Source: a virus. From it: DNA of 64,000 nucleotides. Location: positions 1-64,000 of the IMG/VR virus record IMGVR_UViG_3300027708_001885; one strand, written 5' to 3'. The translations under genes were made by a program, and so were the position numbers. The notes under the pieces were generated by a model that saw nothing but the letters and a program-made list of their open reading frames with translations, was not told the DNA's origin and did not search any database. Below are positions 1,668 to 61,758 of this stretch, one piece after another. The stretch's first letter is position 1; each line of letters begins with the position of its first letter.

Positions 1668-4137
1668 TCATAATAATCTTATTGATAAGATTGTCCATAA
1701 TGTTCTCAACACCTTCGCTAACTGGGACACTTTTAGCATCGTTAGCAAACTGTTTCTTAGTTGCATTGACAATACCACTGAAACGTTTGTCTGCACGTTT
1801 GTAGTCGCCTGCTTTATCAGCAGCAGTTGCATCTGCACTGGCGGCTTTTTTATAACGACCTAACGTATCATTGGATAGTTCTTTTAGGTTGCCCCATTCG
1901 TCTTTGCTAGTACGATCGTTCTTGGCAATCTGTGAGCCCATATACTGACTATCACGTTTCTTATCACCGGCCGCACGTAGTTTAGCAGACATTCCATCTT
2001 TAGGATTGGTCAAGCGTTTAGCTACAGTATCCATGGCATTGCTGCCTGCCTCCGCCACACCTTCTTTTGGTTCTGGTAAGCGTAACTTTTTACGCATTTC
2101 GGGGCTTGTATCTTTTAAACGTTTCTGTTGTTCTTTTTCACGCTGGGCTTTTGCTTCTGGGCTATTTGCTCTTTGTTCGCGGCGGTCACCGCTCGGTGTA
2201 CGATTATCCATTTCTGACAAGTCTTCCGCCACACCTTGCTGATCCAACATACTCGGTAAGCCTTGTGCCTTACGAGCCATATGACGAGCCCAATCTACTT
2301 TTTCATCATCAACCGCATCAACTAACTCGGCCATTTTCTTTGCGATTAGGTCGTGTGCTGTTGATGGCTTATATTTTTTCATATTCAACTTTTTAGCAAC
2401 ATTAAGATAAAGTTGTAAATCATTGCTGTCATCACTGCCATTAAAATCACCCTGAGCAAATTCGTTCAAGCCTTCCGCCACACCTTGCTCTGTTACTTTT
2501 CCTGTATTGCGTAATCTAGATTTTAGTGTGTTCTTTCTATAGTCGCTGTCTTGCTTAAACATCTTACCTGCTTTGGTAATACGACCTATAGGTTCTTTCC
2601 AACGCATTGAGTCGCCATACCCCGAAGAGTGATTCTGGCGTGGAAAATGCATCTTATTTGTGCCTGCTTCTACCTTGTTGGCAACATTATCACCAAACTC
2701 TTGTCGGATCTGATCTAACACTTCATCGGGATCGTAATGATCGTCAACGCCGTATCCGTCGTTGGATGGATCAGTAGCATCTCTATAGGTGTTAATTAGG
2801 TCATCTAATCTTGCTCGCTGATCAGGATCCAAGCCTTCCGCCACACCTTGCTCTTTAATGTTTAGTTGCTTTTTAGTGTATGCCACTGAGTTATCCAATG
2901 CGGCTAAACCTTTTTCTTCAGAGTTCTTGCTCAACCCAGTATCATAAAGTTCATCACCGTTATAGATCCGAACCTGCCAACCCATTCCAGTATTGACCAA
3001 ATCGTGTCTGAAGTTTCCTACCTTGACTGATTTGACTACATTCATGCCCGAGCCTTCCGCCACACCTTGCTCTCTAATTTTTAACTGGTCAGCAGGATTG
3101 CCACCACCAAACATATTACCAAAAGCATCACGTGCTCTTTGTTGAGTTTGTTTTTGCTGTTCCTTGCGGTCTGCGGTTTTTTGTTTGTTAGTTCCCTGCT
3201 TGATAGTTGTCATCATCTTGTCAAACGGTTTATCACCAGTGACCTCTGCCACACCTTTCTGAACCATCTTTTTACCAGTGCGTGGATCTACTCTTTGTGA
3301 GTCTTTAAATGCCTTGCTAAGGATATCGGTAGCTGCTGTAGTTGCTTGTTTGGCAGTAATTCCTTTAGCAGTATATTGCTTCTTACCAGCATCCGGATCT
3401 TTCTTGTCTCTAGAACCGTATGTGCCGTGACTTACATGTCCGTCACGTCCCGGAGGAGTTTGTGATTTGTCCATTTCTTTTAAACCTTTCTTTGGCTTGA
3501 CCATTGCCTGCATACGCTGTTTGGCCTTCATCATTAGATCTCGAACTTCGTCGTCTCCAATCTCTGGACTCATTGCGTCACGCCAAACTTGGAATTGTTC
3601 TTGCTCACTTTTGCTAGGATCCATTAATACGGCTCGCATTGGTGTAGCTCGTGGTCCTTCTTCCCCTGCACTAGGATCTCCTGTTTCTTGACGACTTATG
3701 ACGTCTAAATTGTCAAAACTGTATAGAATATTGCCTGATTTGTCTGGTTTATTGTTATAATTCTTCAGGTATTGAAAGGCCTTAACTTGATCAGCACCTA
3801 GCACTACTGTGACACTTGTATAACCTTGTTGATTTAAATTGGCCAATACGCGAGTTAGATCCGGAATCTCATCTGTAGCAGGTTGGAAAATGTGTCCGCT
3901 TTGTGGAAATACTTTCTTGTAGATTGCTATCTTTTCATCTGGAGTAATTGGATCATCTTTTCCCACGGTCTTACTAACAACAAAGTAAGGATCGCCACCT
4001 ACTTTACTTGCCTGTGTAATAACACTACTGGCCAACATCATATGTCCTTTGTGGCCCATACCTCTGCCCCAACCAACAACGGCTGTCTTGCCTTGTCCTG
4101 TTCGTTGTATAGCTTCGAAAATATTTCTTAAAAACAT
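1639..4137 (-). CDS. HxGH-type (cytidylyltransferase-like) nucleotidyltransferase domain fused to a modular QGVAE-repeat tail
   Basis: Likely start MFLRNIFE at 4137; GHKGH motif, VVLGADQV; six GVAE repeats in the C-terminal two thirds. Confidence 0.75.
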   Translation of the reverse strand: MFLRNIFEAIQRTGQGKTAVVGWGRGMGHKGHMMLASSVITQASKVGGDPYFVVSKTVGKDDPITPDEKIAIYKKVFPQSGHIFQPATDEIPDLTRVLANLNQQGYTSVTVVLGADQVKAFQYLKNYNNKPDKSGNILYSFDNLDVISRQETGDPSAGEEGPRATPMRAVLMDPSKSEQEQFQVWRDAMSPEIGDDEVRDLMMKAKQRMQAMVKPKKGLKEMDKSQTPPGRDGHVSHGTYGSRDKKDPDAGKKQYTAKGITAKQATTAATDILSKAFKDSQRVDPRTGKKMVQKGVAEVTGDKPFDKMMTTIKQGTNKQKTADRKEQQKQTQQRARDAFGNMFGGGNPADQLKIREQGVAEGSGMNVVKSVKVGNFRHDLVNTGMGWQVRIYNGDELYDTGLSKNSEEKGLAALDNSVAYTKKQLNIKEQGVAEGLDPDQRARLDDLINTYRDATDPSNDGYGVDDHYDPDEVLDQIRQEFGDNVANKVEAGTNKMHFPRQNHSSGYGDSMRWKEPIGRITKAGKMFKQDSDYRKNTLKSRLRNTGKVTEQGVAEGLNEFAQGDFNGSDDSNDLQLYLNVAKKLNMKKYKPSTAHDLIAKKMAELVDAVDDEKVDWARHMARKAQGLPSMLDQQGVAEDLSEMDNRTPSGDRREQRANSPEAKAQREKEQQKRLKDTSPEMRKKLRLPEPKEGVAEAGSNAMDTVAKRLTNPKDGMSAKLRAAGDKKRDSQYMGSQIAKNDRTSKDEWGNLKELSNDTLGRYKKAASADATAADKAGDYKRADKRFSGIVNATKKQFANDAKSVPVSEGVENIMDNLINKIIMNEAISNNRR
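2051..3257 (-). repeat. In-frame dispersed direct repeats GAGCAAGGTGTGGCGGAAGGCTTG (EQGVAEGL)
   Basis: Identical 24-mers at 2467-2490 and 2830-2853; near-identical copies at 3051-3072, 2223-2241, 2051-2063, 3248-3257, also 114-133 and about 288-304. Confidence 0.9.
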
Positions 4138-47491: not shown

Positions 47492-47561
47492 TTTATTCTC
47501 CTTATTATGTATATATTATAGCAGTATTTTACCAATCTGTCAAGTAAGTAAATAGTATTAT

Positions 47562-49051: not shown

Positions 49052-49342
49052 ATACTTTATTGAAACACACTAACCGCTCTGTTCCTACTGTATGCCTACA
49101 GTTTGTATCCATTCGTTTAATACGTTTCAATAAAGTGTCTAGCTACCTACACCACATAGGCCCTAGACTGAGCGGTCTACTCTGTCTACGTATTTCTTCT
49201 TTTGGAAAAGGTTAGCGTTCCCCACCCAATGCGTTTCCAGTATCCCCCAACAGGGACTGATAGTCAATGCACTGCACACTTAGCACTCTCTATGGTGACT
49301 GCCCCACCCACTTTCATAACGTCAAAGTGTAACCCGGGTTTC

Positions 49343-50041: not shown

Positions 50042-50329
50042 TGGTGCTCCGAGCCGGACTCGAACCGGCACACCTTGCGGCGAGAGATTTTCTTACCACT
50101 ATAGTTTTCACTACCCTTGCGGTTTGATGGTCTGGACTATACCTTCATCATAGTATTACTACTTTAGATGCCCGCCGTCTAGTCTCTACACGTTCCCTTT
50201 CGGGCTTCGCTCGGTATTAGCATTTTACAGCCTTCACCGAATTTGACGGGTTCTACTCCTAGCATTTCCACTAGGGCACTCAAATTTTACTCTCAAGTCT
50301 CTTGTGTCTACCTATTTCACCATCGGAGC
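50042..50329 (-). tRNA. tRNA-Leu(UAA), intron-containing
   Basis: Exons 50295-50329 and 50042-50091 join to give CT-T^AA-AA loop, long variable arm, CCA. Confidence 0.9.
50092..50294 (-). mobile_element. Group I self-splicing intron in tRNA-Leu(UAA), no ORF
   Basis: 5-prime exon ends in U, intron ends in G; AAATTCGGTGAA, AATACCGAGC, GTAGAGACTAGACGG, AAGGTATAGTCC core elements. Confidence 0.9.
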
Positions 50330-50496: not shown

Positions 50497-50564
50497 TTTT
50501 AACGAACGTTGCTAAACTTGTTAGCCTATGTGTTTATTATACAGGGTATTTAACAACCTGTCAA
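50497..50564 (-). promoter_or_regulatory. sigma70 promoter with hairpin and boxA-like element
   Basis: TTGACA-17-TATAAT (50536-50564), GCTAA/TTAGC hairpin, CGTTCGTTAAAA. Confidence 0.75.
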
Positions 50565-52612: not shown

Positions 52613-52678
52613 TGTTAAAGAGCGTATGTTAATTTCTTAACATGTGTTTATTATAGCATAGTTTTCTAACGGTGTCAA
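52613..52678 (-). promoter_or_regulatory. sigma70 promoter followed by boxB-like hairpin and rrn-type boxA
   Basis: TTGACA-17-TATAAT; ATGTTAA-GAAA-TTAACAT; CGCTCTTTAACA. Confidence 0.85.
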
Positions 52679-59019: not shown

Positions 59020-59047
59020 ATTATACACGAGTTAAGTAGAATGTCAA
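59020..59047 (-). promoter_or_regulatory. sigma70 promoter inside tRNA array
   Basis: TTGACA-16-TATAAT. Confidence 0.75.
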
Positions 59048-60143: not shown

Positions 60144-60219
60144 TGGCTCCATCTGTTGGATTCGAACCAACCTCTTCCGGTTAACAGCCGGGGGTACTCA
60201 CCGAGAATACTAAGATGGA
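60144..60219 (-). tRNA. tRNA-Asn(GUU), second copy
   Basis: Cloverleaf, CCA. Confidence 0.88.
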
Positions 60220-60230
60220 ATAGAATATTT

Positions 60231-60317
60231 TGGTGGAACCCCAAGGAATCGAACCTCTTGCCACCACCCACCTTATTTTGGCTACGATTTTACAGACCGC
60301 AAGCGGGAAAGGGCTCC
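60231..60317 (-). tRNA. D-armless tRNA-Tyr(GUA)-like RNA
   Basis: Acceptor, anticodon and T arms present; only 10 nt where the D arm belongs. Confidence 0.65.
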
Positions 60318-60558
60318 ATTAAACACACTCTAGCAGTTTATCTTTCTGCCTCTCTATACTATGTACTCGGAACGAATGTGTGTATTAAAGTACTTTCCGC
60401 TACGCTGTCGTGCCCGTTGGAGGGGTCAAGTGAAAGCACTTTAATACGAACTAATTTTTAGTCCCACAAGAGGGATTCCATCCTAGTCGCCGCCCGTTTG
60501 CCCCAATGTTTTACGTGCAGGGCGAGGACCTCGTTTCCTCATATCACACGTTGCGATG

Positions 60559-60711
60559 TTAACGACCTCCGCAGAGCGTCTCTCGCTTTCTCATAGCTTC
60601 ATAACTTTGAACAGCTCTTGCCAACTTGTTCTCAAACAACTGTTTAAGTTGTTCAGGAGTTAGCGTATGCTGTCTAAGCCATTCAGCTTGTTTGATCTTT
60701 TTACTGTCCAT
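60559..60711 (-). CDS. Small 50-aa protein directly after the attenuator
   Basis: MDSKKIKQAEWLRQHTLTPEQLKQLFENKLARAVQSYEAMRKRETLCGGR. Confidence 0.5.
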   Translation of the reverse strand: MDSKKIKQAEWLRQHTLTPEQLKQLFENKLARAVQSYEAMRKRETLCGGR

Positions 60712-60722
60712 TTTCTTTTTGG

Positions 60723-60759
60723 AAAACAAAAAACCCCAGGGTTCTTAATCCTGGGGTCC
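60723..60759 (-). terminator. Intrinsic terminator (attenuator) ahead of the tRNA array
   Basis: GACCCCAGG..CCTGGGGTT stem followed by TTTTGTTTT. Confidence 0.9.
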
Positions 60760-60782
60760 TTGGAAGTTAAAATGTAATCTAG

Positions 60783-60926
60783 TTACACTTTGGTCTCCTG
60801 GGACCCCGAGTTAATCTCCGGTGTGCGATCATAACTTGACAGACTATTAATCGCTAACCAGCTGGCGGACATGCATCCAACCTGTTTGGCTATCGTATTA
60901 AAATGTTGTCTTTGTTGCGATTGCAT
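60783..60926 (-). CDS. Putative attenuator leader peptide containing all 20 amino acids
   Basis: MQSQQRQHFNTIAKQVGCMSASWLAINSLSSYDRTPEINSGSQETKV; codons 40-44 complementary to the terminator 5-prime arm. Confidence 0.75.
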   Translation of the reverse strand: MQSQQRQHFNTIAKQVGCMSASWLAINSLSSYDRTPEINSGSQETKV

Positions 60927-60984
60927 TTTGTTTTCTCTTTAAACCTTTGTTTACATCGACAGCACCATTGCTGCCTATGTGTTA

Positions 60985-61117
60985 ATTATACATTTATTTA
61001 GTCTCGTTGTCAACCACTATTTGCAAGTTTGGCAAAATATTTTAAAGTATTTTGCTTTTTTGCCTACAATGCTTGCTAACTAGTCTCTATTGTACAACAG
61101 TTTTTCACTGCTGTCAA
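60985..61117 (-). promoter_or_regulatory. Tandem sigma70 promoters heading the tRNA array
   Basis: TTGACA-17-TATAAT (60985-61013) and TTGACA-17-TACAAT (61089-61117). Confidence 0.85.
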
Positions 61118-61158
61118 GTACTTTAGACAATTTATTTTGTTGTATTTTTACAACAAAA

Positions 61159-61758
61159 TTAGAGGACCCCAAATCTTATTTTAACTATCTCATCGAATGT
61201 AGGGTTTCCTTCAAGCCGGACGGTAAGAACTGAACGATATGTTCCGTCAATATTGCTATTTGCACTATGCGGAACATCAACCCGGGTAATTGTTGGTACA
61301 TCATATATTTCAACGTTATCTAAAAGACTTGGTATACTATACCAATTAATGGCCCAAAATGGCACGGCCTTATTAGTAATTTCATCTATCCTAATTTGAG
61401 CCGTAAGTGTATAATCCCCACCCATCCAAAACATACATGTATTTCTACATCCGTCCAGCGGAATAATAATAGAAGCGTGTATCATTCCAACTTGGCCAGT
61501 TTCTGGTATACGATTACCGTCAACATGTAAATGATCTTTTGATATATCAAAGTTTTTTCTTTTAATACATAACAAATTGCGGACCTTAGGCAATCCATAT
61601 TCAGCTAATTCTAAATTAAGAATACTAGAAATTTTTCCATTAGTATCCAGTTGTCTAAGATATAGATCATCTTTGTTGAACTGATCCATATAAACTGACG
61701 CAAAATGTTGCAATTCTTTAAAACACTTTAATGGAAATGGATAATGCAACTTATCCAT
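61159..61758 (-). CDS. Cupin/2OG-Fe(II) oxygenase-like protein
   Basis: HVDG, IIPL.GC..T.M.W, PHS, R..LTVR; resembles 52769-53254. Confidence 0.6.
   Translation of the reverse strand: MDKLHYPFPLKCFKELQHFASVYMDQFNKDDLYLRQLDTNGKISSILNLELAEYGLPKVRNLLCIKRKNFDISKDHLHVDGNRIPETGQVGMIHASIIIPLDGCRNTCMFWMGGDYTLTAQIRIDEITNKAVPFWAINWYSIPSLLDNVEIYDVPTITRVDVPHSANSNIDGTYRSVLTVRLEGNPTFDEIVKIRFGVL

Follow-up and report, generated by a model that had tools for sequence, protein, structure and literature searches.

The minus strand of an uncultured giant phage carries, at the head of a tRNA array, an element that we interpret as a ribosome-dependent transcription attenuator, a reading to which we give a probability of about 70%. 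The DNA analysed, referred to below as the window, is a stretch of 64,000 nucleotides located at the start of a 102-kb IMG/VR contig, whose completeness is rated at 22%; the coordinates given for the promoters, the leader, the switch and the genes that it would control all refer to its minus strand. The element is composed of sigma-70-type promoters, a short leader ORF that contains all 20 amino acids, a long antiterminator hairpin and an intrinsic terminator. An attenuator of this type had been proposed in a preliminary description of the same DNA. The proposal is now supported by comparative evidence, namely the amino-acid coverage of the leader in relatives and a switch whose helices covary, and its mechanism is inferred.

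The leader region and its relatives

DNA and protein searches of a phage database with the region, the leader peptide and the upstream gene gave no match, and single-protein locus searches with two genes located upstream of the leader detected no relatives. The nearest cultured kin are the jumbo phages PA5oct, Atu_ph07 and RaK2, which are related only distantly (their ClpA-like protein is 39-44% identical). The leader peptide of 47 amino acids, used as query, displays 13 homologues in a protein collection. The alignment of these homologues retrieved 26 viral and 31 metagenome loci (57 related contigs), and when 1.84 billion cluster representatives were searched with a profile, 81 hits were obtained. 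In all, about a hundred relatives carry such a leader. The promoter, the leader ORF and the terminator are kept together in the 57 related contigs. The length of the leader ORF is comprised between 42 and 53 codons in the 57 contigs and the 81 protein clusters, and every relative has the same terminator. A tRNA scan was realized on 21 loci, and in all 21 the element is located at or near the head of a tRNA array on the same strand; in the most distant clade, two tRNAs of the array come before it and it is not at the head. The leader element is linked to tRNA arrays.

The leader ORF (60783-60926) contains 47 codons. All 20 amino acids are present and the twentieth new one, Glu, appears at codon 37, as had been described. 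Among 39 distinct DNA copies no stop codon is found in frame 0, whereas the two other frames contain 133 and 203 stops and are open in none of the 39. Between the conserved blocks, every indel has a length divisible by three, and around the motif GGGTCC a deletion of 2 nt and a deletion of 1 nt compensate each other and restore the frame (L011 compared with the window). Judged from these alignments, the leader ORF is real and is conserved together with a start signal; its translation is inferred. A purine-rich region, the putative ribosome-binding region AAAGAGAAAACAAA, precedes the ATG at 60927-60940. In relatives, GAGA or GGAA is found 8-11 nt before the leader ATG, and the long ORFs of the same genome are preceded by the same kind of weak Shine-Dalgarno sequence as the leader.

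The two sigma-70 promoters that the preliminary description placed before the ORF were recovered, a proximal one at 60985-61013 (TTGACA-17-TATAAT, 12/12 match) and a distal one at 61089-61117 (TTGACA-17-TACAAT, 11/12 match). The sequence GTTGACA-17-TAtAAT is present just upstream of the leader ORF in every relative examined. The sequence that follows the distal promoter of the window (61040-61117; AGAGACTAGTTAGCAAGCA) matches the single promoter module of L004 (2880-2990), and this resemblance suggests that the tandem promoters arose when a promoter module was duplicated. An AT-rich perfect palindrome, TTTTGTTGTA AAAA TACAACAAAA, is located at 61134-61157, just upstream of the distal promoter and right after the stop codon of the ORF 61159-61758. 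This palindrome may be an operator or a weak terminator, and its motif is also found before the promoter in L004, L008, L011 and L017.

The minimum-energy fold places a hairpin in the 5' UTR (60958-60975), at the 5' end of the leader transcript. Two-sided changes are observed in relatives at 6 of its 8 pairs, and 82% of cells are paired. The clade containing L020, L021 and L024 is without this hairpin and has a 5' UTR of only a few nt. In the most distant clade (L021 and L024-L027, around 2985-3001), only 10 nt separate the end of the -10 box from the ATG. With such a short 5' UTR, the translation of the leader would be nearly leaderless in one clade, which counts against the attenuator model.

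Inside the ORF, three blocks named A, B and C (13, 20 and 15 nt, respectively) are invariant even at third codon positions. Block A, ATAGCCAAACAGG (60881-60893), is identical in 22 of 22 aligned relatives and occurs only once in the window. The blocks B (60841-60860) and C (60816-60830) are predicted to form a hairpin together (60816-60860; RNAalifold consensus), in which 97-99% of cells are paired without any double change, the blocks hardly varying. A variable hairpin, P1 (60861-60882), carries an invariant in-frame ATG that corresponds to an internal Met codon. Its stems differ by clade (GGA/UCC, GGC/GCC and GUGCA/UGCAC); the pairing register varies and the pairs were not formally counted. 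The B/C hairpin does not pair with the arm of the antiterminator described below, and it is too invariant to be tested as a 1:2 pause or anti-antiterminator hairpin. No 1:2 partner or anti-antiterminator of the trp type was found in the leader. The blocks A to C may be a site of factor binding, or a pause signal or pause hairpin, and the attenuator model leaves them unexplained.

Amino-acid coverage of the leader peptides

With the amino-acid usage of the genome, the probability that random codons contain all 20 amino acids is 0.03 (3.2%) for 47 codons and 0.004 (0.44%) for 37 codons. All 20 amino acids are also found in about 4-5 other small ORFs of the 102-kb genome (4 of 171 ATG-started small ORFs). 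The coverage of a single sequence is therefore not significant, and significance can be obtained only across relatives. The leader had also been said to sample many isoacceptor codons. The five Ser codons on which this claim relied in part are present, but the sampling is not beyond chance (P = 0.27), and the leader contains 34 distinct codons versus 31.5 ± 1.8 expected (P = 0.13). Its codons are rarer than expected (P = 0.0008), which may be explained by the GC-rich stems. An ORF of 38 codons with a GTG/TTG start (49163-49279, minus strand), located between tRNA-Thr and tRNA-Gly, contains all 20 amino acids as well. It was considered as a second leader and rejected: it has no similarity with the leader, it is situated in what is apparently non-coding RNA of balanced composition, and its coverage is read as chance.

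From the alignment of the close relatives, we observe that all 20 amino acids are present in 42 of 50 distinct peptides, the 8 others containing 19. The conserved columns of this alignment supply 15 amino acids; the five others (Cys, Phe, His, Val and Tyr) are provided by variable columns, at positions that change with the clade. Cys is spread over 16 columns, with a mean of 0.98 per peptide and a variance of 0.22, and His is spread over 12 columns and is missing from no peptide. When the columns of the 50 peptides were shuffled (5000 trials), the number of all-20 peptides was 15 on average and 27 at most, versus 42 observed. A tree-aware simulation was also realized, starting from a root with all 20 amino acids and using column-specific frequencies for all columns. 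At rates 2-8, where the simulated divergence comes near to the observed one, none of 1000 runs attained the value of 42; at about half of the observed divergence P was 0.007.

The coverage was also counted in an independent set of 77 diverse cluster representatives, whose median identity is 42% and whose conserved columns fix no more than ten amino acids. In this set 57 peptides have 20 amino acids, 20 peptides have 19 and none has fewer, whereas 3.6 ± 1.8 all-20 peptides are expected from the family composition and 17.2 ± 3.4 from column shuffling. His is found in 18 columns and is missing from no peptide; Cys is found in 28 columns, with a mean of 1.03 per peptide and a variance of 0.29. For every amino acid, the variance is below the mean count per peptide. 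All the 127 peptides examined have 19 or 20 amino acids. As a control, the two other reading frames contain 16.5 distinct amino acids on average. The preliminary description had proposed to look in relatives for a short ORF of full coverage kept despite sequence divergence, and full coverage is kept in both sets beyond every null.

The position of the residues is also constrained, since 31 of the 34 ORFs with all 20 amino acids already encode the whole set before the hairpin arm is reached, versus 7.7 expected. Each amino acid is present about one to three times in the leader and Ser about six times, without codon runs. On the evidence of these comparisons of aligned peptides, the full amino-acid coverage of the leader is under selection. 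The leaders that are without one amino acid (8 of the 50 peptides from close relatives and 20 of the 77 diverse ones) count against the attenuator model. The absence of an amino acid from the leader was not found to go with the absence of its tRNA: the leaders without Cys or Leu keep a tRNA-Cys or a tRNA-Leu far downstream.

The switch, its proposed mechanism and the alternative readings

The strong intrinsic terminator announced after the ORF is located at 60722-60757. It consists of a GC-rich stem of 8 bp (60757-60750 / 60740-60733), a loop of 9 nt and a U-run; this loop length is the sole reason why a terminator scan missed the site. Its energy is -14.6 kcal/mol, and comprised between -12 and -15 among versions. 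The alignment of 34 sequences reveals that 100% of the cells of this stem are paired and that 2 pairs are compensated. A long antiterminator hairpin is predicted at 60750-60810 (-26 kcal/mol, z -5.6). It contains three helices: a basal helix GGGGUCC (60807-60801):GGACCCC (60759-60753), a middle helix GGAG:UUCC and an apical helix of 9 bp, whose loop adjoins the stop codon of the leader (60785-60783). The folding of 35 distinct versions gave in all 35 one long hairpin (-21 to -32 kcal/mol, z -3 to -9), and the stop codon is at or beside its apex in nearly all of them. The sequence of the apical helix differs between clades and its pairing is kept. The basal helix is paired at 97.7%, versus 58-65% in controls slid by one column, and two-sided compensation is observed at 4 of its 9 pairs.

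The terminator and the antiterminator share the nucleotides 60757-60750 (alignment columns 102-109). The pairing earlier identified between GGGGTCC (60807-60801) plus GGA, on one hand, and TCC..GGACCCC (60764-60753), on the other hand, is confirmed at these positions. The mutual exclusion deduced from it holds as well, but the extent of the structure had been underestimated: the antiterminator is a much longer hairpin made of three parts, the stop codon being placed at the apex. A test for covarying antiterminator and terminator pairs had been proposed in relatives, where both structures are conserved and overlapping, with compensatory changes. As far as alignment and folding can tell, the helices are mutually exclusive and covarying.

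Several characters of leader-peptide attenuators are thus gathered in the phage element. It has a short ORF in the 5' leader, provided with a start signal and open in relatives (its translation was not observed). A terminator is located between this ORF and the genes to be regulated, and an antiterminator shares nucleotides with this terminator and covaries. The ORF overlaps the antiterminator, with its stop codon at the apex; the effect of this overlap on termination is inferred. Codon runs, another character of these attenuators, are absent.

In the mechanism that we propose, the host RNA polymerase would start at the strong sigma-70 promoters and synthesize a leader of ~250 nt. The last third of the leader ORF and the next 30 nt would fold as the antiterminator, whose base uses the 5' arm of the terminator and whose apex holds the stop codon. 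A ribosome arriving promptly at the stop codon would melt the whole 5' arm of the hairpin, the terminator would form and transcription would end. With a ribosome that is late, stalled or absent, the antiterminator would form first and transcription would continue into the small gene, the conserved RNA and the proximal tRNAs that are described in the last section. From the coordinates, it can be inferred that a ribosome at the stop codon would cover part of GGGGUCC and that GGACCCCAGG would then be available to the terminator. Compared with the terminator, the hairpin has about twice the stability and is the first of the two to be transcribed; its formation should therefore be prevented only by a ribosome that is unwinding its 5' arm. 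The default state without translation would consequently be readthrough and, since no anti-antiterminator of the trp type is present, a failure of translation initiation should have the same result.

As all 20 amino acids are kept, almost always upstream of the hairpin arm, the slow decoding of any of them should raise the transcription of the tRNAs. The element would then act as a general sensor of decoding capacity, with feedback on the tRNA supply. The translation of the leader, the direction of the switch and the physiological trigger are inferred, in the absence of transcript, ribosome or mutant data. With somewhat less confidence than for attenuation itself, we nevertheless favour the idea that the element is a cis-acting sensor of the phage, in which the ribosome is slowed whenever any charged tRNA runs short and the phage tRNA genes are switched on as a result, and that it serves a large family of giant freshwater phages. 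The triggers that had been named (anticodon nucleases, tRNA decay) are conjecture. One observation counts against the attenuator model at this point: the codons for Pro and Glu (and for Tyr or Val in some clades) are very close to the hairpin arm, and a ribosome stalled at them may cover the arm.

The terminated leader of ~250 nt could itself be the product of the locus, as a dual-function small RNA and/or a functional peptide of 47 amino acids, the hairpin and the terminator serving merely to end and stabilise it and the readthrough into the tRNAs being incidental. The three nucleotide-invariant blocks suggest a sequence-specific recognition beyond codon content, and the whole leader is strongly structured (z -4.9). 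Attenuator-derived RNAs and leader peptides of Sinorhizobium are reported to act in trans (PMC6614838, PMC7968998). We nonetheless consider this explanation unlikely as a replacement for attenuation. It accounts neither for a complete amino-acid set whose residues shift columns, nor for the stop codon at the apex of the hairpin, nor for a covarying helix that competes with the terminator, nor for first tRNAs without a promoter of their own. It is compatible with attenuation, and both could be true together.

The blocks A, B and C, which are invariant and predicted to pair, and of which a model based on translation only gives no account, could also be the binding site of a factor (protein, uncharged tRNA or small molecule). 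The switch would then be driven by this factor in the manner of a riboswitch or a T-box, translation having only a supporting role. This possibility appears doubtful. A search of Rfam 15 with the region 60720-60990, at E values up to 10, detected nothing relevant (T-box, known leaders, tmRNA), and the search with eight relatives detected only tRNAs. The invariant core is placed inside the ORF, where ribosomes would unfold it, and translation is the signal indicated by the selection that keeps the frame open and the amino-acid set complete.

Structure is the only basis for the direction of the switch, and in about 60% of relatives the terminator is followed by a small gene that has a ribosome-binding site of its own. 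The logic could thus be reversed or different, translation promoting readthrough by blocking Rho or an RNase, or the hairpin controlling the translation of the next ORF. We hold this to be very improbable: the terminator stem is ~26 nt away from a ribosome at the stop codon and cannot be masked by it, relatives without a downstream ORF (~40%) also retain the element, and the U-run terminator is 100% conserved. Finally, a chance origin of the all-20 content and of the complementarity, in an ordinary small early gene with its terminator, would agree with the coverage of one sequence (P about 0.03), with the 4-5 other all-20 ORFs of the genome and with an unexceptional codon diversity, but it is rejected by the data of the family (coverage nulls, frame, covariation, folds and position of the set) and can practically be set aside.

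Known leaders and the genes downstream of the switch

The enterobacterial leaders (trpL, hisL, pheL, thrL and ilv) combine a short ORF with exclusive hairpins, and the position of the ribosome is the signal. The genes that they gate are biosynthetic and their runs are made of one to three cognate amino acids; a 1:2 pause or anti-antiterminator hairpin ensures that the absence of translation gives termination. As in these leaders, the RNA helices of the phage element overlap the coding sequence, which entails conservation at the nucleotide level. Contrary to them, the phage leader has about one of each amino acid, no 1:2 partner was found in it, and it would gate non-coding RNAs. The T-box binds directly one specific uncharged tRNA and needs no translation. 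Like the T-box, the phage leader is proposed to couple, in cis, the charging of tRNA to the readthrough of a terminator; unlike the T-box it contains a conserved ORF, and it has no T-box match in Rfam.

The closest known system is the uORF attenuator of whiB7 (wblC), found in mycobacteria and other Actinobacteria, where a uORF is placed before an intrinsic terminator with a competing antiterminator (PMC10274678). Stalling anywhere in this uORF is believed to give readthrough, the shortage of many amino acids induces the system, and the loss of the start codon raises basal expression (PMC10274678). The content of the uORF sets the amino acids that are sensed. This content includes 19 of the 20 amino acids in M. 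smegmatis and varies between species, several amino acids being absent in M. tuberculosis, and it is enriched in Ala (PMC10274678). The phage leader resembles this system as a uORF of tens of codons with a terminator and a competing antiterminator, and as a uORF of broad content (the sensing itself is inferred). It does not share the context of an Actinobacterial whiB7 gene nor an Ala-rich uORF (Ala represents 6.5%), and the two have no sequence similarity. Furthermore, the whiB7 uORF gates a transcription-factor gene in a bacterium, whereas the phage leader would gate a small ORF, an RNA and tRNAs, and in the phage leader the full coverage is itself conserved.

We found in the literature no attenuator of tRNA genes, phage or other, and no leader with all 20 amino acids; the coverage of this search was incomplete and novelty is unproven. 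To our knowledge, the timing and the dosing of the expression of phage tRNA arrays are largely unknown. The reason why large phages carry near-complete sets of tRNAs is debated. If the proposed mechanism is true, it would provide a simple feedback in which tRNAs are made when translation slows (host tRNA loss, starvation, defence nucleases). The leader would be the clearest case so far of selection maintaining complete amino-acid coverage in a leader peptide, and attenuation would no longer be limited to sensing one or a few amino acids but would include a general sensor. The element is compact and uses host sigma-70 promoters and an intrinsic terminator; it could serve as a portable sensor of translation stress.

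The tRNA/ncRNA array that the preliminary description placed after the terminator is present, but not immediately: an ORF of 50 codons and an RNA of ~230 nt come first. The ORF (60559-60711) encodes a conserved small helical protein of 50 amino acids with the motif QHTLTPEQ..KL...K..RA. This first gated gene has its own ribosome-binding site and is optional in the family; where present, in about 60% of relatives, it directly follows the terminator. Its all-20 content was considered as a family trait and rejected, being confined to the clade of WIN, L002 and L003. Outside the clade of the window, this ORF contains 14-18 distinct amino acids, and it constitutes an internal control for the coverage of the leader. 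In most relatives, the conserved structured RNA (60320-60545) comes after the terminator and before the first tRNA. It is characterized by the motifs GGAAACGAGGUCC and AAACGGGCGG and by a long stem CUUUAAUACACAC.../...GAGUGUGUU, and the Rfam search with this RNA gave no family match.

The first gated tRNAs (60144-60317), detected with ARAGORN and Rfam, are a tRNA-like gene (60231-60317) and a tRNA-Asn (60144-60219). There is no promoter-like site on the minus strand between 60720 and 60150. After the tRNA-Asn are found an HNH gene and seven more tRNAs, up to a perfect promoter at 59020-59047. The internal promoters previously reported at 59020, 52650 and 50536 all match the sigma-70 consensus perfectly (12/12; 59020-59047, 52650-52678 and 50536-50564), and one more is present at 47515-47543. 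These four promoters would bypass the switch, a further point against the attenuator model, so that only the proximal tRNA block would be gated, in agreement with what had been supposed. Four perfect promoters in the array are far above expectation, and they split it into separately driven blocks. A group I intron is also predicted in the tRNA array (50111-50298, minus strand) from a match to the Rfam family RF00028 at 61 bits, above the gathering score.
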